In this document: positions 49,740-59,459 of the stretch, piece by piece | Position numbering within the stretch: the stretch's first letter is position 1 | How the letters are laid out: each line of letters begins with the position of its first letter | Assembly (NCBI GenBank): GCA_025359505.1 | Contig: JANYHH010000077.1 | Coordinates: 64,784-128,783 of the forward strand | DNA length: 64,000 nucleotides | Source: Deinococcales bacterium | GTDB taxonomy: Bacteria; Deinococcota; Deinococci; Deinococcales; JAAFIG01 | Direction of reading: 5' to 3' | Position numbers and translations under genes: made by a program | Notes under the pieces: model-generated | Told to the model about the DNA's origin: nothing | Database searches by the model: none | What the model saw: the letters and a program-made list of their open reading frames with translations, nothing else

Positions 49740-50030
49740 TCATCGAGGCGAATCGACCTCGAAAGTTCTGCATTCCAACACTGGGATCAGCAGTGCGCCC
49801 ATCTCATCATCCAAGTACTCGAGGTCTGAGCGCGGGATGCTCTTCCAATGCTCCAAAGTTTCCCAGCGGATCACGACGATGGTCGCGCCAGTGTCGGGTT
49901 CAAACCACGTTTCTTTACCGATAAACCCCTGACACTTCGACAGTGCCAGCGTCCAGACCTGCGCGTCGCGTGTCAAAAAATCGGCACGCAACTCGGGCGG
50001 GACGTCAAATCTCAACCATTCGATCACCAT
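49740..50030 (-). CDS. ABM-like (dimeric alpha/beta barrel) protein, TIGR03792-like
   Basis: 96 aa: MVIEWLRFDVPPELRADFLTRDAQVWTLALSKCQGFIGKETW...VIRWETLEHWKSI. Confidence 0.55.
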   Translation of the reverse strand: MVIEWLRFDVPPELRADFLTRDAQVWTLALSKCQGFIGKETWFEPDTGATIVVIRWETLEHWKSIPRSDLEYLDDEMGALLIPVLECRTFEVDSPR

Positions 50031-50191
50031 CGCTAAACATTAGCATGGCGAACAAGTCAACTCGAGACGTATAAAGCGCAAAGTGTCATAAAATCTCTGC
50101 ACATTTTACCTATTCGTGGAAAGAATCACCTCACAAATAGTCAAATTTTAGTCGTTTGATACCAAATGTTGCTACAGCCAGCACGTCCTGC

Positions 50192-50221
50192 TTGACACCC
50201 TCGAACGCGACGCGTTACAGT
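50192..50221 (+). promoter_or_regulatory. candidate sigma-70-type promoter for the ABC/amidohydrolase cluster
   Basis: TTGACA (50192-50197), 18-nt spacer, TACAGT (50216-50221), located in an AT-rich 230-nt intergenic region. Confidence 0.35.
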
Positions 50222-50261
50222 CTGTGAAACAAAGGTTTCTTCACACTCGAGAGGTCAAGTC

Positions 50262-51059
50262 ATGACACGAACCCAAGCCTTCACCGAACGCTCGAGCCGC
50301 AGTGAAACGCTGGTCAGTGTGCGCGGCGTCGATAAGCAATACGGCAATGGCACGGTTGCGATTTCTGGGATTGATCTCGAGGTGAAAACTGGCGAGTTCG
50401 TCTCGCTCGTCGGGCCCAGCGGTTGCGGCAAAAGCACTTTGCTCAGAATCATCGCTGGACTGGGTGAGGCCACCACTGGCGAGGTCTTGGTCGACGGCGC
50501 TGCTCCCGGCGACGCGCAGACCAGAGGGCAATCGAGCTTCGTTTTTCAGGAAGCCACCCTGCTGCCGTGGCGACCAGTGCGCCAAAACGTGGAACTGCCC
50601 CTAGAACTGATGAACGTCCCTCGCATCCAGTGGGCTGAACGCGTCGGTGAAGCGCTCCACATGGTTGGCTTAAGCAACTTCGCGGGCGCGTACCCGCGTG
50701 AACTGTCCGGCGGCATGAAAATGCGGGTTTCAATTGCCAGAGCGCTGGTGACCAAGCCGCGCCTGCTGCTGATGGACGAGCCGTTCGGAGCACTAGACGA
50801 AATCACCCGTCAACGACTCAACGACGATCTGATGCGCGTTAAGGAGATTACCGGCGCGACCGTGATTTTCGTCACTCACAACGTCTTCGAGGCGGTCTTC
50901 TTAAGCAGTCGAATCGTCGTGATGAGCGTGCGCCCGGGGCGAATCCTCGAGCAGATCGCAGTTGACACGCCCTACCCACGCTCGAGCGATTACCGCACGT
51001 CAGCAGCGTTCACCAAAGACGCGGGCGTGGTGATGAAATTGTTGGCCCACACCCATTAA
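50262..51059 (+). CDS. ABC transporter ATP-binding protein (NitT/TauT family)
   Basis: Walker A GPSGCGKST, signature LSGGMKMRV, Walker B LLLMDEPFGALD. Confidence 0.9.
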   Translation: MTRTQAFTERSSRSETLVSVRGVDKQYGNGTVAISGIDLEVKTGEFVSLVGPSGCGKSTLLRIIAGLGEATTGEVLVDGAAPGDAQTRGQSSFVFQEATLLPWRPVRQNVELPLELMNVPRIQWAERVGEALHMVGLSNFAGAYPRELSGGMKMRVSIARALVTKPRLLLMDEPFGALDEITRQRLNDDLMRVKEITGATVIFVTHNVFEAVFLSSRIVVMSVRPGRILEQIAVDTPYPRSSDYRTSAAFTKDAGVVMKLLAHTH

Positions 51060-51117
51060 CGCCGCGCTTTTCGCCAGTGAAGATCACTCCCTCGAGTGAT
51101 GAGCCAGAAAAAACGGA

Positions 51118-51966
51118 GTGACCATGACAGAATCCACACCCAAACCCGTCACCATCGCCGTCCCTCGAGAACTCAAAGCCCCCGCTTGGCTCGAGCGCTT
51201 CTTTCCGCCGCTGGCTTCGTTCGTGCTGTTCATTGCCGTCTGGCAGGGAATTATCCTCGCCGCGCAACTCAAACCGTATGTACTGCCCGGGCCGCTCGCG
51301 GTGATCGGCGCGGTCGTCGATAACCGCTCGAGTCTCGGAGAATCGGCGCTGTTCACCTTTCAGGCATCGTTCGTCGCGTTTTTGGTGGTGATGGTGCTGG
51401 GAACCGTGATCGCGTTCGTGCTGGCCAGCTCTAAATTTATCGAAAAAGCCTTTTACCCTTACGCGGTGATGCTGCAAAGCACGCCGGTGATTGCGATTGC
51501 GCCGATCATCATCATCTGGTTTGGTTTTGGATTCACCAGCATCGTCACGATCAGCGTGATCATCGCCATTTTCGCGGTGGTCGCCAACACCACGCAGGGA
51601 CTGATCAGCGTCGAAAACAACCTGCAAAACCTCTTCAAACTCTACGGAGCCACTAAACCGCAAACCCTGCTGAAATTGCGCCTGCCGTTCGCACTGCCGT
51701 TCATGGTCACAGGCTGGCGCATCGCGGCCGCACAGGTCGTGATCGGCGTGATCGTCGGCGAGTACATGGCCGGCGCTGGCGGCGGCGGCATGGGCGGGCT
51801 GGGCTTAATCATCGCCGAAACCAGTGCGCGGCTGCAAACCGCGTACTTGTTCGCGGCCGCGCTGTGCGCGGCCTTGCTCGGGATCGGGTTCTTCTTGGTT
51901 GTCAACCTGTTCGGGCATTTACTCTTAAAAAACTGGCACGAATCCGCGATTCAATTCGAGAACTGA
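51118..51966 (+). CDS. ABC transporter permease (NitT/TauT family)
   Basis: Multi-TM BPD-type permease, e.g. QSTPVIAIAPIIIIWFGFG. Confidence 0.85.
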   Translation: MTMTESTPKPVTIAVPRELKAPAWLERFFPPLASFVLFIAVWQGIILAAQLKPYVLPGPLAVIGAVVDNRSSLGESALFTFQASFVAFLVVMVLGTVIAFVLASSKFIEKAFYPYAVMLQSTPVIAIAPIIIIWFGFGFTSIVTISVIIAIFAVVANTTQGLISVENNLQNLFKLYGATKPQTLLKLRLPFALPFMVTGWRIAAAQVVIGVIVGEYMAGAGGGGMGGLGLIIAETSARLQTAYLFAAALCAALLGIGFFLVVNLFGHLLLKNWHESAIQFEN

Positions 51967-52047
51967 CCACCGATCCTCGAGCCAGCAACCTCAAACGCTC
52001 GAAACACACTTGCCGTCACATTTGCCCACTTTCGGGCTGGAGGATGT

Positions 52048-53022
52048 ATGAAGAAACGCATTGCACTGGCGGTACTCGGCGCGGGCTTGGCAGTTGGAGT
52101 GGCGTCGATGGTGAACGCGCAAAAAGCCATGCCAGAAGTCAGCATCATCCTCAACTGGTTCGCCGAGCCACCGCACGGCGGCTACTACGCGGCCGTGCAA
52201 GACGGTCTGTACGAGAAAGCGGGCGTTAAGGTCAAGCTGATTCCCGGCGGGCCAAATGTCGCGGGGTACAGCCTCGTATCGACCGGCAAAGCCGAATTCG
52301 CGCAGATGGACACGGCCGGCATTCTGCAATCACGCGAGCAGGGCCTGCCCGTGGTCGGCGTCTTCGCCGATCTGCAACTCTCGCCGCAAGTGCTGATGTT
52401 CCATAAATCCAACCCCGTCAAAGGCTTCGCGGATCTAGCCGGACGCCAAGTCGCCGTCACACCGGGCGCTCCGTACTGGGATTACATCGTCGCTAAGTAC
52501 AAACTCGAAGGCAAAGCCCAGCAAGTCAATTACACGGGTCAGGTCGCCACGTTCCTCAACGACAAAAAGCTCGTCAGTCAAGGCTACGCAGTCGCGGAAC
52601 CGTACACCATCGAACAGGCCGGCGGCGACATCGATTATCTACTGGTCAGCGATTCGGGGTTCAGCCCTTACGGAGTCTTGGGCACGAACGAGGATTTCTT
52701 AAAAAATAACCGCGCCGTCGTAAAAGCCGTGGTTGAAGCCAGTCAAGAAGGCTGGAACCGCTACGTCGCCAACCCCGCCAAATACGGCGACGCGATCAAA
52801 GCCGACAACAAAGATTTGACGCCGGGTTTCCTCGCATGGAGCGGCAAAGCCGTCGTGCCATTCGCCACCGGCAAAGATGGGCAAGTCAAAAAATACGGTT
52901 TCGGCACGATGCAACTCAGCCGCTGGAACGAGATTTACAAGGCGCTGAAAGCCGTCGGGATCTTAAAGAAGGATCAAGTCGTGCAGCAGGCCTTCAACAC
53001 GACCTTCATCAAAAAGCCATAA
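52048..53022 (+). CDS. ABC transporter substrate-binding protein (NMT1/THI5-like, SsuA/ThiY type)
   Basis: Signal peptide. ILNWFAEPPHGGYYAAVQDGLYEKAGVKVKLIPGGP matches the NMT1/THI5-like pattern. Confidence 0.85.
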   Translation: MKKRIALAVLGAGLAVGVASMVNAQKAMPEVSIILNWFAEPPHGGYYAAVQDGLYEKAGVKVKLIPGGPNVAGYSLVSTGKAEFAQMDTAGILQSREQGLPVVGVFADLQLSPQVLMFHKSNPVKGFADLAGRQVAVTPGAPYWDYIVAKYKLEGKAQQVNYTGQVATFLNDKKLVSQGYAVAEPYTIEQAGGDIDYLLVSDSGFSPYGVLGTNEDFLKNNRAVVKAVVEASQEGWNRYVANPAKYGDAIKADNKDLTPGFLAWSGKAVVPFATGKDGQVKKYGFGTMQLSRWNEIYKALKAVGILKKDQVVQQAFNTTFIKKP

Positions 53023-53042
53023 CCGTTGAGTGACATCAGTTT

Positions 53043-53067
53043 GGGGCGGGCGAACTCCGCCCCTTTC
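53043..53067 (+). terminator. rho-independent terminator after the NMT1-type SBP gene
   Basis: The stem-loop GGGGCGG-gcgaact-CCGCCCC is followed by TTTC. Confidence 0.6.
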
Positions 53068-53147
53068 ATCACCCTCGAGTTTGGAACGCATTTATACTGA
53101 GTCTCACCACGAGTCTCGAGTTGCTTGGCCTCACTCGAGGGGCAACG

Positions 53148-53666
53148 ATGCGCGTTTTTCTCGAGATAAAGCGGTCTATTTCAGAACTGGAGTTGTGTTT
53201 TTTGAACTTTGATTTGGTGACGGTCAAACAGGGAATTATTTTGTTCTGGGCGGTCTGGTTAACGCTGGTGGTGATCCTCAATTTGCTGGACGTGCTGAAA
53301 AACACGGGCGTGCTCAGCACCAATTGGAAGTTCAACAGCGGGAACTTCCCGTTCATGCAGGCGGTCGTGAAAGTCTACGGCACGCCAAATGCGATCACGT
53401 GGGCATTGTACGCGGGCGCGATTGTCTGGGAGATCGTCGCTATTGTCTTGCTGTGGGCTGCCTTAGGCACATTCGACCCGAGCAACTTGCGGTTGGTCAA
53501 TCTGGCGTTTCTGGTCAATCTGGCGCTGTGGGCAGTGTTCGTCATCATGGACGAGATTTTTCTGGCCTTCCTCGTGCCGGGCTTCAACATCATGGAAACG
53601 CACCGCAGCCTCTTCACCGCCAATCTGGTCAGCCTGATGGCAATTCACCTGTTGCCGAACACCTAA
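53148..53666 (+). CDS. hypothetical integral membrane protein
   Basis: Four predicted hydrophobic helices. GAGGGG RBS before ATG 53148. Confidence 0.5.
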   Translation: MRVFLEIKRSISELELCFLNFDLVTVKQGIILFWAVWLTLVVILNLLDVLKNTGVLSTNWKFNSGNFPFMQAVVKVYGTPNAITWALYAGAIVWEIVAIVLLWAALGTFDPSNLRLVNLAFLVNLALWAVFVIMDEIFLAFLVPGFNIMETHRSLFTANLVSLMAIHLLPNT

Positions 53667-53702
53667 ACTCAGCCCTCGAGCCTGCTCGAGTAAAGGACAG
53701 CC

Positions 53703-54476
53703 ATGCGAGACTCGAGATACCTGCCTCACCTGACATGGAATGAAGTGCGCGACCTCGAGAAGCAAGCTGGGGTCGTGGTCTTGCCGATTGGCGCGATCGA
53801 GCAGCACGGCCCGCACCTGCCGACGGCGACCGACGCGCTGCTGGCGGAGGAAATCACGAAACTGGCGCTCGAGCGCTTGCCAAAGGGCGCGAAGGTCTGG
53901 CGTTTACCCGTTCAAAGTTACGGCAAATCCAACGAGCATCTGGGTTTCGCGGGGACGATCTCCTTGCGGGCGGAAACGTTGATGGCGGTCGTGATGGACA
54001 TTGCCGTCAGCGTCGCGGCCTCTGGTTTCCGGCGCTTGTGTTTCGTCAACGCCCACGGCGGCAACAGCGCACTGCTGGCGATGATGGCGAGAGAGATTCG
54101 CGTCACCACTGGCTTGATGGTCTTCAACACCTTCACCAACGCCGGAGCGCCCGATCCAATCGAGATTCCAGCGCTCGAGGCAAAGTACGGCATTCACGCC
54201 AACGACTGGGAGACGAGCTTGATGCTGCATCTCAGGCCAGACTTGGTGCAGATGGACAAAGCCGTCAGAGAATACCCGCAGCTCGAGGGCAATGTCGGGC
54301 TGACGGGCGGTGCGGCAGTCGCGGCGTGGCTGACCCGTGACTGGTCTACGACTGGCGTCTTTGGCGACGCGACGCTGGCGACGCCTGAGCGCGGCGCGGC
54401 GCGGCTCGAGGTTAGCGTTGCAGCGCTGGCGAAGGTACTCGAGGAGATCAGTCGATTTGAGGTGCAGCAGCCGTGA
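53703..54476 (+). CDS. creatininase family amidohydrolase
   Basis: LPIGAIEQHGPHLPTATD and FVNAHGGN motifs. Confidence 0.85.
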   Translation: MRDSRYLPHLTWNEVRDLEKQAGVVVLPIGAIEQHGPHLPTATDALLAEEITKLALERLPKGAKVWRLPVQSYGKSNEHLGFAGTISLRAETLMAVVMDIAVSVAASGFRRLCFVNAHGGNSALLAMMAREIRVTTGLMVFNTFTNAGAPDPIEIPALEAKYGIHANDWETSLMLHLRPDLVQMDKAVREYPQLEGNVGLTGGAAVAAWLTRDWSTTGVFGDATLATPERGAARLEVSVAALAKVLEEISRFEVQQP

Positions 54477-55711
54477 ACGATTTTCTGATTCGCCATGCGC
54501 GGCTAGTGACGGGGGAGCTGGTCAGCATCGCCGTCAAAGACGGCAAAATCGCGGCGATCGGCAGTGATCTCGAGGCGATGGCGTTTGAAACCAAAGACGC
54601 GCACGGGCGCGTGGTGATGGCGGGCTTGGTCGAGGCGCACTGTCACTTGGATAAGAATCTGACGCTCTCCTCCGTCGGGAATCAAAGCGGCACGCTGATG
54701 GAAGCCATTACGAACTGGGTCGCTTACAAACCGAGCTTGACGCACAGCGATTACCTCGAGCGAGCCAGCGCGGGTCTCGAGTTGGCACTGGTCAACGGCG
54801 TCACTGCGCTGCGGTCACACGTGGATGTCAGCGTCGTCGGTGGTTTGCTGGCGCTCGAGGCGGTCAGTGAGGCGAAATCGAAATTCGCTGACGCGATGGA
54901 CGTGCAACTGGTGGCGCTGGGCATGGCAGGCGTCAGCGAGGCGGAAAGCGCGATCATGCTCGAGGCAATGAACACCGACGCGGATGTCGTCGGCGGCTGC
55001 CCGTGGATCACCCCAGACCCTCGAGCGGCGGTGACGGCAGTTTTTGATCTGGCGCAAAAAACGGGCAAGCCGATTGACTTGCACGTCGACGAGACCGAGG
55101 ACGCTGGCGTGAACACACTCGAGGTCATCGCTGGATTGACCTATGATCGCGGCATGCAGGGACTGGTGACGGTCGGACACTGCTGCTCGCTCGAGTTCAT
55201 GACGCAACGTGATGCCGAGCGCGTGATGGATTTGGTGGCGCGAGCTGGCTTGCACGTCGTCAGTTTGCCCGCGTGTAACCTAAACTTGCAGGGACGCGGG
55301 GCGCATCCAGCGCCCAGAGGCTTGACGCGAGTGGACGAACTGCTCGAGCACGGCGTCAACGTCTCGTTCGGTTCGGACAACGTGCGCGACCCGTTTCACC
55401 CGATCGGCGATTACGACCCGCTCAAGGCAGCCAACCTCGGCGTGATCGCCGCGCACATGAGCAGCTCCACGCAGATGCTGACCACCCTCGAGATGGTCAG
55501 CAGTCACGCAGCGCGGGCGCTACGCTTGCCGAATTACGGGCTGACGGTTGGCTCGAGCGCCGATTTTGTGGTGCTGGACGCGACCTCGGCGCTCGAGGTC
55601 TTGAGCCGGATTCCGGCTCGGGTTGCGGTCTACAAGCGCGGGCAGTTGGTCTCGAGCACCGAAGTTAAACGCAGCAGCCGTGGGAAGCTCGAGGTCAGCG
55701 CGTGGACGTGA
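54473..55711 (+). CDS. amidohydrolase family protein (cytosine deaminase-like)
   Basis: GLVEAHCHLDK metal-binding motif, DLHVDE, and GSDNVRDPF. Confidence 0.8.
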   Translation: MNDFLIRHARLVTGELVSIAVKDGKIAAIGSDLEAMAFETKDAHGRVVMAGLVEAHCHLDKNLTLSSVGNQSGTLMEAITNWVAYKPSLTHSDYLERASAGLELALVNGVTALRSHVDVSVVGGLLALEAVSEAKSKFADAMDVQLVALGMAGVSEAESAIMLEAMNTDADVVGGCPWITPDPRAAVTAVFDLAQKTGKPIDLHVDETEDAGVNTLEVIAGLTYDRGMQGLVTVGHCCSLEFMTQRDAERVMDLVARAGLHVVSLPACNLNLQGRGAHPAPRGLTRVDELLEHGVNVSFGSDNVRDPFHPIGDYDPLKAANLGVIAAHMSSSTQMLTTLEMVSSHAARALRLPNYGLTVGSSADFVVLDATSALEVLSRIPARVAVYKRGQLVSSTEVKRSSRGKLEVSAWT

Positions 55712-56946
55712 TCCTCAGAAACGCCCTCATTAACGGTGGGCTGACCGATGTCGGCATCGAGGACGGTGTGATCTCGCAGCTCGAGCCGAAGCTTGAAGGT
55801 CGGGCGAAGCTCGAGTTAGACGCGGGCGGGTGTTTGACCGTGCCAGCTTTCGTCAACGGGCATTTGCACGCCTGCAAAAGCGATTGGCGCTCAAGCTTAC
55901 TGGCGCTCGAGCCGAATTTCGATTTCACCGATATGAGCGCCCGTTTCGCGGGCATTGCTCGAGTGAAACGTCAGTACACGGCTGCCGACGTGCTGGCTCG
56001 AGCCGAAACGACGGTGCGGCTGGCGGTGCGGCACGGCACTTGCGCGATGCGCTTGTTCGCCGATGTGGACGCCGACGCGGGCTTGCAGGCGCTCGAGGGG
56101 CTGCTGCAACTCAAAACCAAATACGCGGGGACGCTCGAGTTGCAAGTCGCGGCTTTTCCGCAAAACGGCGTGTTCAGCGCAGCCGACAGCACCACGGAGC
56201 TGATGACGCAGGCGCTGGACATGGGAACGGATGTCGTCGGCGGCATTCCGTGGCTCGAGCCGACGGTCGACGCCCAACTCGCCCACATTGACCTCGTGCT
56301 CGAGTTAGCGCGGCGTTACAACAAGCCTGCTCATTTCGTGCTGGACGACACGGACGATCCGACCTCGAGAACGGCGGAACTGGTGGCGGCTCGAGTGATT
56401 GAGTTGGGAATGCAGGGGATGGTCAGCGGCACGCAAGCCAACGCGCTGGCGTATTACGACGACGCGCACGCCGAGCGGGTGATTCGGCTGCTCAAATCAT
56501 CCGGCATGACGATTTTCAGCAACGCCCACGTCGCGCTCGTGACCACCGCGCAGCGTCACCAGCCAGCTCCGAGAGGTCACACACGGATTCTCGAGCTGCT
56601 GCGTGCGGGCGTACCTGTGGCGACCGCGCAGGACGACATCGACAACCCGTATTACCCGTTCGGGCGCAACGATCTCTTGGAGGTCGCGCAGTACATGGCG
56701 CACCTCGCGCCGCTGGCGTGGGGAGCGCAGTTGAACCAAACGCTGGCGATGGTCACGCACGTTCCCGCCAAAGCGATTGGTCTCGAGGGGTACGGGTTAA
56801 GTGTCGGCTGCAAGGCGAATCTGTTGGTGCTAAACGCGCCGAATTGGTTTGAAGCGATCAAATTGCAATGCGAGAAAACTTTCGTGATCGCTCACGGCAA
56901 ACTCATCTCGAGCAGCCAACGCAGCACAACACTGAATTTGCCGTAA
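55702..56946 (+). CDS. amidohydrolase family protein (cytosine deaminase/AtzC-like), paralog of the upstream gene
   Basis: PAFVNGHLHACKS, HFVLDD, and TAQDDIDNPYYPFG. Confidence 0.8.
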   Translation: MDVILRNALINGGLTDVGIEDGVISQLEPKLEGRAKLELDAGGCLTVPAFVNGHLHACKSDWRSSLLALEPNFDFTDMSARFAGIARVKRQYTAADVLARAETTVRLAVRHGTCAMRLFADVDADAGLQALEGLLQLKTKYAGTLELQVAAFPQNGVFSAADSTTELMTQALDMGTDVVGGIPWLEPTVDAQLAHIDLVLELARRYNKPAHFVLDDTDDPTSRTAELVAARVIELGMQGMVSGTQANALAYYDDAHAERVIRLLKSSGMTIFSNAHVALVTTAQRHQPAPRGHTRILELLRAGVPVATAQDDIDNPYYPFGRNDLLEVAQYMAHLAPLAWGAQLNQTLAMVTHVPAKAIGLEGYGLSVGCKANLLVLNAPNWFEAIKLQCEKTFVIAHGKLISSSQRSTTLNLP

Positions 56947-57008
56947 GCTCGCGGTTTAAGTAATCACCGCACCGTCCAGCTCTACCACCGCCCGAGGAGG
57001 CACTGCCC

Positions 57009-58424
57009 ATGAACGACGCGCTCATCACTGCACTGAAAGCAATTGTCGGCGACAGTCAGGTCTTCACCGACCCGCGCTCGCTCGAGGTGTTCAGTAAAGA
57101 CCACTCTTGGTTCTCGCCGGTGCTGGTGGAAACGCTGAAAGACAAACTGGCGGAGGTCGTCGTCGCGCCCGGCTCGAGCGACGAGTTGCAGCGCATCGTC
57201 GCGCTGGCCGTAGAACACGGCGTGCCATTGACGGTGCGCGGCGCGGGCACGGGCAATTACGGGCAGGCTGTACCGCTGAGCGGCGGCATTCTGGCGAACC
57301 TGCACCGATTGAATCGCATCTTGGAGATCGACGCGGTGGCGGGCACAGCTCGAGTCGAGGCGGGCGTGCGGATGGGCGCGTTGGAGCGCAAAGCCCGTGA
57401 GCTTGGTTGGGAGCTGCGGATCTACCCGAGCACGTGGGCGACCTGCACGATCGGCGGCTTCGTCGGCGGGGGTTTTGGCGGCGTCGGCAGCATCAATCAC
57501 GGCACGCTCTGGGACGGCAACGTCTTGGCAGCGCAGGTGATCCCGATGACCGCTGACCCAGAGAAAATCGAGCTGACCGGCTGGGACTGCGCGGCGATCA
57601 TTCACGCGTATGGCACGACGGCGATCATGACCGAATTGACGATTCCATTAGCAAAAGCCGTGGACTGGGCGGAAGCCGTCATCAGCTTCCCGACGCTCGA
57701 GGCGGCAATTCAGTACGGCTTGAAACTGGCCAATGACCCCAGCATCACCAAGCGCGAGCTGAGCATCAACGAATCAGGCATCCCCGAGTATTTCACGCCA
57801 CTGAAAAACGAGGGCGCGATCCTGCCAGATCGGGCGAACGTGCTGCTTGAGGTCGACGGTGCGAAACTCGAGGTTGCCGTGCAAATGGCGCTCGAGTTTG
57901 GCGGCAGTCTGGATTGGCACAATCCGATTGACAAGTACCACAAGGGCGGCATCGCTGTTTCAGATTTCACGTGGAACCACACGACGCTGTGGGCATTGAA
58001 AACCGACTCGAGCCTGACCTACCTGCAATCGCGCTTTGAGGTCGACAAATTGCTCGAGCAGGTCAGGTTATTAAAAGCGAGATTCGGCGACGAGATTCTG
58101 CTGCATTTAGAACTAATCCGCGAGAACTTGGCGGACGGCGGCCCGCTGGTGGCGGCGTCCCTGCCGATCGTGCGCTTCACGACCAAAGAGCGCTTGTACG
58201 AGATGATCCATTACTGCGAGCAGATCGGCATTCAAATCGCCGATCCGCACGTCTATTACTTGGACGAGGACTCGAGGTGGAACGGCGAGGCGGTCATCAA
58301 AGCGGTCGCCCGCTTTAACCCGCTGGGCTTGCTGAATCCCGGCAAAATCAAGCAGCTCGAGACGGGTGAGATCGGCGTGCAGGCGGGATCGTGGTTCGGC
58401 GGCAAGACCGCGACGACGGTGTAA
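57009..58424 (+). CDS. FAD-binding oxidoreductase (FAD_binding_4 / GlcD-like)
   Basis: VVAPGSSDELQRIVALAVEHGVPLTVRGAGTGNYGQAVP is a PCMH-type FAD domain. Confidence 0.85.
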   Translation: MNDALITALKAIVGDSQVFTDPRSLEVFSKDHSWFSPVLVETLKDKLAEVVVAPGSSDELQRIVALAVEHGVPLTVRGAGTGNYGQAVPLSGGILANLHRLNRILEIDAVAGTARVEAGVRMGALERKARELGWELRIYPSTWATCTIGGFVGGGFGGVGSINHGTLWDGNVLAAQVIPMTADPEKIELTGWDCAAIIHAYGTTAIMTELTIPLAKAVDWAEAVISFPTLEAAIQYGLKLANDPSITKRELSINESGIPEYFTPLKNEGAILPDRANVLLEVDGAKLEVAVQMALEFGGSLDWHNPIDKYHKGGIAVSDFTWNHTTLWALKTDSSLTYLQSRFEVDKLLEQVRLLKARFGDEILLHLELIRENLADGGPLVAASLPIVRFTTKERLYEMIHYCEQIGIQIADPHVYYLDEDSRWNGEAVIKAVARFNPLGLLNPGKIKQLETGEIGVQAGSWFGGKTATTV

Positions 58425-58427
58425 GCC

Positions 58428-59459
58428 GTGATCGACTCGAGCGCCGCTCTCCCCTCTTCAGGCTGCCCGAAACAGATGACCTACGGCCCATGCGCGGGGC
58501 TGCGCGGTGCGACCGAGTGCGAACTGCCGGGCGTGACCTGCCCGTTCGTCGGTCTCGAGCGCGTAGCGACGTGGGCGGGTACTGCACCAACCCAGTCCGT
58601 CACCACCAGCGCGGGCTTAGTCTTCCTCGAGAACATGGCGCGGCGACCCGTGTTCGTGACCGACATCCCGACCGTGCCACTCGACGCGGATAGCATTGGC
58701 AAAATAGCCGATCTGATCGGTGACAGCGCCGACGCGGTGCTGATCGGCGATCACGGTGGGGCGCGGGTGCAATTCCCGCCCGCGTACCGCGCCATGCTGA
58801 TGCGTCAAGCTGGACTCGAATCGTGGGTGGGCTTCAACTGCCGCGACCGCAACCGCGTGGCGCTGGAAAGTGAAGCGGCAGCCTTGGCGCATCTCGGCGT
58901 GGCGGGCGTCAACTGCGTGACCGGCGATCACACGATGAGTGGGCATCGCAGCGATGCCAAGCCCGTCTTTGACCTCGACAGCACGAGATTAGCCAGTCTG
59001 GCTCGAGCGGCTGGGCTGCTGGTCAGTGTCGGCGAGAATCCAATTGCGCCGCCGCTGCATTTGCGAGCCGAGCGCTTGGCGCAGAAAGTCAAAGCGGGAG
59101 CGCACCTGTGCTTCGTCAACCTACCGCACAGCACCGAACTGGTGCTCGAGTTCAGGCAGGCGGTGCTGCGGCATGGCGTAGATGTGCCGCTGATCGTCGG
59201 CGTGCCGGTTATCACGTCGCACGGTGCGGCTGAGCAGATGATGGGCTTTCAAGGCTTAAAGCTCCCACACGGCTACCTCGAGCGGATTCTAGGCAGCCGC
59301 AACCCGAGGCTCGAGGGGATCAAGGCCAGCGTCGAACACGCGCAGGCGATGCTTGGCGTCGCGGGCGTGCGCGGGCTGAACCTGTCAGGCCCGGCAGCAG
59401 CGGGCGAGGAGCAAAGCATGGCGCGTGACTTCGCCGAGGTCGCTCGGGCGTTGAGGTGA
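58428..59459 (+). CDS. methylenetetrahydrofolate reductase-like protein with N-terminal Cys-rich MTHFR_C-type module
   Basis: CPKQMTYGPCAG...CELPGVTCPF Cys cluster followed by a TIM-barrel-like MTHFR region. Confidence 0.65.
   Translation: MIDSSAALPSSGCPKQMTYGPCAGLRGATECELPGVTCPFVGLERVATWAGTAPTQSVTTSAGLVFLENMARRPVFVTDIPTVPLDADSIGKIADLIGDSADAVLIGDHGGARVQFPPAYRAMLMRQAGLESWVGFNCRDRNRVALESEAAALAHLGVAGVNCVTGDHTMSGHRSDAKPVFDLDSTRLASLARAAGLLVSVGENPIAPPLHLRAERLAQKVKAGAHLCFVNLPHSTELVLEFRQAVLRHGVDVPLIVGVPVITSHGAAEQMMGFQGLKLPHGYLERILGSRNPRLEGIKASVEHAQAMLGVAGVRGLNLSGPAAAGEEQSMARDFAEVARALR

Follow-up and report, generated by a model that had tools for sequence, protein, structure and literature searches.

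Which compound is imported and broken down by the products of a nine-gene operon found at positions 50,262 to 59,459 of a 64,000-nucleotide stretch of a Deinococcales genome (assembly GCA_025359505.1, contig JANYHH010000077.1; hereafter the window)? The operon encodes an ATP-binding cassette (ABC) importer, a small membrane protein, a creatininase-family hydrolase, two amidohydrolases resembling the cytosine deaminase CodA (denoted AH1 and AH2), a flavin adenine dinucleotide (FAD) protein and, as gene 9, a protein joining a four-cysteine (Cys4) module to a methylenetetrahydrofolate reductase (MTHFR) fold. Comparison with other bacteria revealed that the operon is the Deinococcales version of a widespread, barely characterised module for import and breakdown of a nitrogen-rich ring compound. 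That this compound is a pterin or a folate-derived pteridine fragment, taken up and catabolised by the operon's products, is a reading to which we give an even chance.

Homologs of the flavoprotein number more than 6800 at E < 1e-30, and 526 relatives were confirmed in representative genome contigs. Neighbourhoods were counted within 10 kb of the flavoprotein gene at 87 loci, consisting of the best 80 loci and others that were fetched. Genes for an ABC ATPase were present at 53 loci, for an NMT1 binding protein at 44, for a creatininase-family protein at 42 of the 87 and for an AH1-type amidohydrolase at 27. Alpha-, Beta- and Gammaproteobacteria, Acidobacteria, Verrucomicrobia, Firmicutes and Actinobacteria are represented among these loci, and at least seven phyla share the core of importer, creatininase-like protein, AH1-type protein and flavoprotein. 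The same set, under generic names, is present on annotated megaplasmids from Rhizobium, Agrobacterium, Klebsiella, Pantoea and a Comamonadaceae strain.

Individual lineages modify this core. In Acidobacteria and Verrucomicrobia, AH1 is missing and a CDA-fold deaminase is encoded beside the flavoprotein, along with a CocE/NonD hydrolase, DUF3891 and an amidase. Replacement of AH1 by a deaminase of another fold argues that deamination is a required step. Initial annotation of the window had proposed uptake and stepwise hydrolysis and oxidation of an N-heterocycle; in general outline, with an amino-substituted ring, this is upheld by conservation of the gene set across phyla and by the swap of deaminases. 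In Proteobacteria the core is joined by RidA and by one of two reductases, a Flavodoxin_2 NAD(P)H oxidoreductase or a PDR/VanB protein, and in cluster copies of Comamonadaceae the AH1-type gene adjoins the RidA gene. Actinobacteria add PNPOx-like proteins, a short-chain dehydrogenase/reductase (SDR) and an MTHFR-fold protein. Reductases that vary with lineage (Flavodoxin_2, PDR/VanB, PNPOx) fit an oxygenase in need of reduced flavin. Two further linkages, to purine catabolism and to malonate, were considered and rejected. Among the loci examined, urate genes stand beside the cluster in Salinibacterium only. Malonate genes adjoin the Rhizobium leguminosarum cluster, but a search of the genome-contig loci yielded none.

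A functional lead is provided by the flavoprotein. It matches structure 6V42 of the Protein Data Bank (PDB) with a phmmer E value of 3.5e-78 over residues 9-452. Its AlphaFold2 (AF2) model has a predicted local distance difference test (pLDDT) score of 86.8, and Foldseek ranks 6V42 first with a template modelling (TM) score of 0.86 and root-mean-square deviation of 2.6. Next-best structures are D-lactate dehydrogenases with TM of about 0.72 and about 20% identity. The depositors entitled 6V42 [quoted passage not shown]. Since two fragments of 6V42 (38 and 39 residues) are 76-86% identical to the flavoproteins encoded within the cluster at Mesorhizobium loci L058 and L085, 6V42 is very probably an alphaproteobacterial ortholog from the same module. 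It had been stated for the window that the gene combination matches no characterised pathway. Indeed, no published pathway was found, but the closest solved homolog of the flavoprotein carries a folate-catabolism title.

We examined the two amidohydrolases for residues that are important in CodA. AH1, about 35% identical to CodA (tblastn match), retains all of His61, His63, His214, Glu217, His246 and Asp313. Met replaces Gln156 and Asn replaces Asp314. The resulting Asp-Asn pair and the surrounding SDN(I/V)RD motif are those of AtzC, and the residue pattern is identical in all 35 cluster-linked orthologs compared. Because the catalytic set of CodA is kept and Gln156 and Asp314 are replaced, AH1 seems to be an active aminohydrolase acting on a substrate other than cytosine. 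It is the conserved deaminase of the cluster and probably its ring deaminase. Identity as cytosine deaminase is not supported for either paralog. AH1 scores 302.5 against a cut-off of 438 (NF005748) and 253 against 403 (NF005759), AH2 scores 274 against 438, and both remain under every NCBIfam cut-off for cytosine deaminases. Deamination of pterins and folate by cytosine-deaminase-like amidohydrolases has been described for Arad3529 of Agrobacterium radiobacter K84 and for PDA of Variovorax (PMC9513972, PMC12391406). In Rhizobiales, CDA-like pterin deaminases are also reported inside an unrelated molybdenum (Mo)-dependent lumazine cluster (PMC12391406).

Top plasmid matches of AH1 were discarded as uninformative, being members of another CodA-like subfamily that is associated with BMP-type nucleoside transporters. 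Amidohydrolases of this kind occur on Rhizobium and Roseateles replicons (L118, 9001-10290; L119, 8992-10284). They are 35-40% identical to AH1 and are encoded by the last gene of BMP-family ABC operons of nucleoside type. This subfamily looks like a separate uncharacterised deaminase module.

AH2 displays a different pattern. It retains Gln156, Asp313 and Asp314 and carries the changes H214V, E217D (Asp as in AtzC) and H246Q; a histidine is found two residues earlier on the same strand, at position 212. The pattern is present in all 117 database homologs at 48% identity or above, which come from Deinococcota and Chloroflexota-type bacteria, and 70 of the 117 have H61Q in addition. The site is a conserved remodelling and not decay. 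AH2 marks the Deinococcota/Chloroflexota variant of the module, in which it may be either a second hydrolase or a non-canonical partner.

The operon encodes an NMT1/THI5-type ABC importer, consisting of PF09084 binding protein, PF00528 permease and PF00005 ATPase. Best NCBIfam matches of the ATPase are SaoA and nitrate, sulfonate and taurine ATPases, all under cut-off. The nearest solved structures to the binding protein are 4NMY and ThiY 3IX1, at E values of 1e-10 and 1e-9 only; the ligand of 3IX1 is formylaminomethyl-pyrimidine. The creatininase-family protein matches PDB creatininases at E 1e-19 only. It is not a true creatininase (TIGR04448, 115 bits against a cut-off of 235), and it also stays under the cut-offs for MftE (134 against 172 bits) and ArfB (19 against 180 bits). 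We propose that it may hydrolyse a ring amide or an N-formyl group.

Creatinine, cytosine and triazine, which had been put forward as possible substrates, are not supported by these results: family cut-offs failed, AH1 is devoid of Gln156 and Asp314, and AH2 of His214, Glu217 and His246. A broader alternative is that the substrate is some other amino-oxo heterocycle that undergoes deamination, ring or formyl hydrolysis and oxidation. It could be of creatinine or glycocyamidine type, cytosine or 5-methylcytosine, an ammelide-like aminotriazine or an aminopyrimidinone (formamidopyrimidine- or riboflavin-precursor-like). We regard this as possible and hold it tentatively. It is in keeping with the CodA/AtzC-like character of both amidohydrolases, namely with the SDN motif of AH1 and with Gln156 and Asp314 kept in AH2; AH1, however, lacks the cytosine-binding Gln156, and thresholds for creatininase, cytosine deaminase and ArfB were all failed. 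ArfB, a formylaminopyrimidine deformylase, belongs to the creatininase family, and RibD_C proteins, which occur in related clusters (see below), reduce ribosylaminopyrimidines, so that with the deaminases they form a trio echoing early riboflavin steps. Thiamine pyrimidines as ligands of the nearest solved binding proteins, location of the Salinibacterium cluster next to urate-catabolism genes, and proteobacterial RidA and quinone-type reductases, which would suit redox-cycling aminopyrimidines, point in the same direction. On the contrary, an MTHFR-fold accessory protein is explained less naturally in this way than by a pterin or folate, and the sole functional label on a close homolog, that of 6V42, points to folate.

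Further evidence comes from the 3' end of the operon. The AF2 model of gene 9 (pLDDT 87.5) is matched by Foldseek to MetF structures with TM of 0.70-0.78 (target-normalised) and 15-18% identity, and hhalign aligned the protein to Escherichia coli MetF with a probability of 93.6. Equivalents of MetF Asp120 and Lys172 are kept (T165-G166-D167 and K220), Phe223 aligns with a non-conserved His, and the Glu28 region fell outside the alignment. The score for TIGR00676 is 28.9 against a cut-off of 293.7, and the best NCBIfam match is the MTHFR half of YitJ. Residues 8-41 match DUF5981 (PF12225) weakly, at 21.2 bits against a cut-off of 23; many homologs have a precomputed PF12225 match. C22, C31 and C38 do not vary among 44 homologs, and C13 hardly does. 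The source genome carries a separate, more canonical MetF homolog.

Within the family to which the source genome belongs, the MTHFR-fold ninth gene was found only in genera g1 and g5 and is absent from the operon in g3 and g4. Elsewhere it lies in or next to the cluster in L103, a locus of a metagenome-assembled genome (MAG), and in Pseudonocardia, Dermatophilaceae and Salinibacterium. In g4, a gene for a RibD_C "pyrimidine reductase"-like protein abuts the stop of the flavoprotein gene on the opposite strand, in all four g4 genomes searched; searches of g1, g3 and g5 genomes yielded no such gene. In the source genome, which is 92% complete, the query used found no RibD_C ortholog. Operons of Chloroflexota type have the order RibD_C-FAD-creatininase-AH1-AH2 (L115, L116) or RibD_C-FAD-AH2 (L117). 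Both reductases are present in L114, in which the order is MTHFR-like-SnoaL-creatininase-AH1-FAD-RibD_C-AH2. Two reductase families thus alternate or combine at the operon 3' end. Gene 9 is inferred to be an optional accessory reductase. Characterised members of the MTHFR-fold and RibD_C (DHFR-fold) families act on folates, pterins or aminopyrimidines, and presence of such genes at the 3' end lends independent support to the folate/pterin lead.

The g4 RibD_C genes were located at 7355-8137 of L106, 11167-12078 of L108 and about 6900-7730 of L109. In L108, 3' ends of the RibD_C and flavoprotein genes overlap by 4 nt, and in L106 and L109 the match ends at the flavoprotein stop. Such tightness is unusual for a convergent pair.

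It had been suggested that the MTHFR-like protein hands off a one-carbon unit to folate. This is possible but not required, since the gene is absent in g3 and g4 and RibD_C takes its place in g4 and in Chloroflexota. In its full form, this explanation states that gene 9 encodes a true folate enzyme for a one-carbon unit released from an N-methylated or N-formylated substrate, oxidising a 5-methyl or reducing a methylene group. It concerns gene 9 alone and is compatible with pterin or folate catabolism. The MTHFR fold with equivalents of Asp120 and Lys172 would suit such a role, although identity to MetF is 15-18% and a separate canonical MetF homolog is encoded in the genome. In Salinibacterium, gene 9 adjoins a gene for homocysteine S-methyltransferase, and in Dermatophilaceae a methyltransferase gene overlaps it; the cluster itself, however, includes no methyltransferase or demethylase. 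Deformylases exist in the creatininase family, which would fit natural folates such as 5-methyl- or 5-formyl-tetrahydrofolate (THF). Since gene 9 is dispensable in g3 and g4 and is substituted by RibD_C, which has no one-carbon role, we consider this explanation doubtful.

From the gene content, synteny, residue patterns, folds and swaps observed, we infer a substrate, an order of steps and a role for gene 9 as follows. The NMT1-type ABC system would import a pterin or a related pteridine. AH1 would then remove the ring amino group as ammonia, turning a pterin into a compound of lumazine type. The FAD protein may oxidise the ring, with its flavin probably reduced by a partner. The creatininase-family enzyme would hydrolyse a ring amide or N-formyl group, and AH2 would either perform a further non-canonical hydrolytic step or support AH1. 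Finally, the Cys4-MTHFR-fold protein may serve as accessory NAD(P)H-linked reductase of the pterin- or folate-binding kind. It could reduce a C=N bond of the heterocycle, oxidise or reduce a one-carbon substituent at N5, or supply electrons to the oxygenase. RibD_C in sister lineages and Flavodoxin_2 or PDR/VanB proteins in Proteobacteria might do the same or a related job.

Several observations weigh against a pterin or folate substrate. The folate link comes from a PDB title, and no published paper was found on that pathway or on this gene set. The nearest solved binding proteins take thiamine-pyrimidine compounds, though they are weakly related. The operon contains no gene for carboxypeptidase G or AbgAB. 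At five cyanobacterial loci (L016, L021, L023, L029, L038), a 6V42-type flavoprotein is encoded with no other cluster member, and a small tetratricopeptide repeat (TPR) protein frequently precedes it. Because Cyanobacteria carry the flavoprotein alone, its family has roles outside the cluster. The MTHFR-fold family, too, is found apart from the cluster, and in genome G003 it is encoded on another contig than the operon. Relatives of the Cys4-MTHFR-fold protein, 55-58% identical, stand alone in unrelated neighbourhoods (L011, L102, contig C3 of G003 and contig C521 of G006), so this family also has a role outside the cluster. As for the literature, a laboratory working on cofactor catabolism named in 2025 just three cofactors with well-characterised catabolism, pyridoxal phosphate (PLP), NAD and riboflavin (PMC12746152). 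The sole pterin/lumazine pathway in print relies on a Mo-dehydrogenase and an Amidohydro_2 isomerase, along with a prenylated flavin mononucleotide (prFMN) decarboxylase (PMC12391406).

Instead of catabolism for nitrogen or carbon, the operon might salvage a damaged or partial cofactor precursor into synthesis of folate, riboflavin or thiamine. We consider this very improbable. The nearest solved NMT1 binding proteins do serve uptake of vitamin precursors, and three or four enzymatic steps are conserved with no consistently linked downstream mineralising enzymes. However, no riboswitch is found upstream, and the regulators seen in other lineages (LysR, TetR, GntR and cupin-HTH types) are of kinds typical for catabolic operons. 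Amidases and RidA are frequent neighbours, and the cluster often resides on catabolic megaplasmids.

A stronger form of pterin catabolism may also be formulated. The operon would then be a complete, not yet described, Mo-independent aerobic route for pterins or folate fragments. In this route, the VAO-fold oxygenase would be driven by a partner of a new kind, in which a Cys4 metal or FeS module is fused to an MTHFR-fold flavoprotein that has ceased to be a folate reductase. AH2 would be a new amidohydrolase chemotype with a rebuilt metal site (Gln/His, His, shifted His, Asp, Gln) that opens a ring and does not deaminate. Taken in all its parts, this proposal is unlikely in our estimate.

Coordinates of the operon genes and adjoining features are listed in Table 1. 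Domain assignments and gene boundaries of the initial annotation hold for the nine genes. It had counted ten co-directional genes; co-directionality stands, and nine open reading frames (ORFs) were found on the forward strand between 50262 and 59459.

Table 1. Genes of the operon and features upstream of it (window coordinates).
Feature	Position	Strand	Evidence
ABC transporter ATP-binding subunit, NitT/TauT-type	50262-51059	+	PF00005, E 2e-33
ABC transporter permease	51118-51966	+	PF00528, E 4.7e-24
NMT1/THI5-family substrate-binding protein, signal peptide, periplasmic/lipoprotein-type	52048-53022	+	PF09084, E 4.5e-32
Small integral membrane protein, hydrophobic ORF	53121-53666	+	Conserved position and identity in relatives
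Creatininase-family metal hydrolase	53703-54476	+	PF02633, 251.4 bits (cut-off 31.3)
AH1, CodA/AtzC-like aminohydrolase	54473-55711	+	E 2e-65 to E. coli CodA
AH2, CodA-like paralog, remodelled site	55702-56946	+	E 5e-59 to Klebsiella CodA-type 4R7W
FAD_binding_4 flavoprotein, VAO/GlcD fold	57009-58424	+	PF01565; homolog of PDB 6V42
Cys4 (MetV/DUF5981-like) + MTHFR-fold protein (gene 9)	58428-59459	+	PF02219, 41.6 bits (cut-off 24)
AT-rich promoter region	50031-50261	+	G+C 43.7%, sigma-70-like site, repeats
TIGR03792-family (ABM-fold) 96-aa protein, possible accessory gene	49740-50030	-	86 bits vs 45.75 cut-off

Overlaps between genes reported at 54473-54476 (4 nt) and 55702-55711 (10 nt) are exact, and the remaining intergenic gaps range from 3 to 98 nt. 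A promoter scan detected a single promoter-like site, TTGACA-18-TACAGT at 50192-50221, 40 nt 5' of the first ATG. Terminator-like hairpins within the operon are not commoner than in shuffled sequence. Two overlaps, no gap longer than 98 nt, a promoter-like site at one place only, no excess of terminators and conserved gene order together mark the nine genes as one predicted operon. A weak Rfam match to bacterial small signal recognition particle (SRP) RNA inside the MTHFR-like gene (59350-59443, forward strand; 21.8 bits against a gathering score of 40 bits, E 0.94) is almost certainly due to chance.

The region upstream is AT-rich, as had been noted, with G+C content of 43.7% in the spacer against 60.4% in the operon. 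Absence of a thiamine pyrophosphate (TPP) riboswitch was likewise borne out, as no Rfam family matches there. An imperfect inverted repeat at 50189-50231 and the element TGTGAA-N11-TTCACA at about 50224-50246 overlap the promoter-like site. In genomes G008 and G017 (L097, L098), a near-perfect palindrome, ACATATGTCAAA...TTTGACATATGT, is located about 40-70 nt 5' of the ATPase gene, and in G001 the sequence TTGACAAAATGTCA is found 5' of the operon. Repeats and palindromes with TGACA/TGTCA half-sites are possibly operators. No regulator gene adjoins them. Upstream regions of relatives are AT-rich, and their comparison revealed no motif common across genera.

Conservation of the operon was examined in Deinococcales relatives (G001, G008, G012, G017 and G003, G004, G009, G015). 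The first eight genes occur in the same order in genera g1, g3, g4 and g5 of this family, and MAG locus L103 contains all nine. A gene order kept in this way exceeds what chance would give. The ATPase is 66-79% identical in these relatives and the permease is syntenic. The small membrane ORF is a real gene, since it is 55-82% identical in eight relatives, at the same position, and 38% identical in L103. Its product of about 150-180 amino acids (aa) has at least three hydrophobic spans and a faint full-length match to DUF2165 (E 0.2); the true start may be at 53148 or later.

In genus g5, the AH1 ORF is short, with 266-369 aa against 412 in the window (L096, 4606-5715; L097, 8139-9158; L098, 5828-6628). 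It is just 49-53% identical to window AH1, and g5 AH2 remains 70% identical. The short ORFs represent either decay or assembly frameshifts.

The divergent TIGR03792 gene is found at the same place 5' of the operon in G001, G008, G012 and G017. It is these genomes that possess the MTHFR-like ninth gene as well. No TIGR03792 match was found in g3 and g4 loci or L103, where the search covered about 690 bases upstream only. Judging by synteny, the TIGR03792 protein is possibly linked to the pathway.

Microbial degradation of folates and pterins is largely uncharted, and hundreds of species living in soil, in water or in association with plants or hosts encode the module, among other places on megaplasmids of Rhizobium, Klebsiella and Pantoea. 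If it is the general route of pteridine turnover, a gap in vitamin B9 cycling would be closed, and several thousand genes now called "cytosine deaminase", "creatininase family" or "FAD-binding oxidoreductase" would receive names. With a pterin as substrate, it would be a second route, independent of molybdenum. New here is a lineage-specific variant of a widespread and only partly characterised module; it is distinguished by AH2, the membrane protein and a MetV-MetF-like fusion. Handles for experiments are offered by the AtzC-like signature of the deaminase, the 117-member amidohydrolase subfamily with a rebuilt site, and the natural swap of MTHFR-fold and DHFR-fold reductases.

How does this operon relate to known systems? 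Cluster I of Cupriavidus sp. LA-1 (PMC12391406) also begins with pterin deamination. It includes a paralogous amidohydrolase-fold pair, one member of which is devoid of metal-binding histidines and yet required, a precedent for AH2 as a partner. Unlike the window operon, it relies on a Mo lumazine dehydrogenase, an Amidohydro_2 isomerase pair, a UbiD-type/prFMN decarboxylase and purine/pyrimidine permeases. None of the nine window proteins matches the enzyme families of cluster I, so identity with this pathway was rejected. Riboflavin/lumichrome catabolism (PMC12746152) was rejected as well, since its enzyme set differs. PDA of Variovorax sp. F1 is a cytosine-deaminase-like enzyme that deaminates folate and pteroate, and a gene for L-PSP ("endoribonuclease", RidA family) lies downstream of it (PMC9513972). 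Compared by description, this corresponds to the arrangement of the AH1-type gene in Comamonadaceae cluster copies.

AH1 and AH2 share fold and subfamily with CodA and AtzC. AH1 combines the full catalytic set of CodA with the SDN motif of AtzC and is without Gln156. AH2 has Gln156 and Asp314 of CodA together with the Asp of AtzC at position 217, and it is without His214 and His246 at aligned positions.

Gene 9 resembles MetVF-type methylene-THF reductases of anaerobes and the MTHFR domain of YitJ, in that its product combines a Cys-rich MetV/DUF5981-like module with an MTHFR barrel. Here, in contrast, the Cys module is fused at the N-terminus, the organism is aerobic, the operon is catabolic, MetF proteins are just 15-18% identical, and in related genera the gene's place at the operon 3' end is taken by a RibD_C reductase.

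The closest counterpart is the module of 6V42/6V43. The flavoprotein described here is a full-length homolog of 6V42, with identity of only 35-45%, and the oxygenase function of 6V42 is known from the depositors' title alone. Those Mesorhizobium and Rhizobium loci that have the flavoproteins nearest to 6V42 also carry the NMT1 ABC importer, an AH1-type "cytosine deaminase" gene (NCBIfam PRK07583) and a creatininase-family gene. Proteobacterial RidA and Flavodoxin_2 genes are absent from the window operon, which adds AH2, the small membrane protein and the Cys4-MTHFR-fold protein to the shared set.

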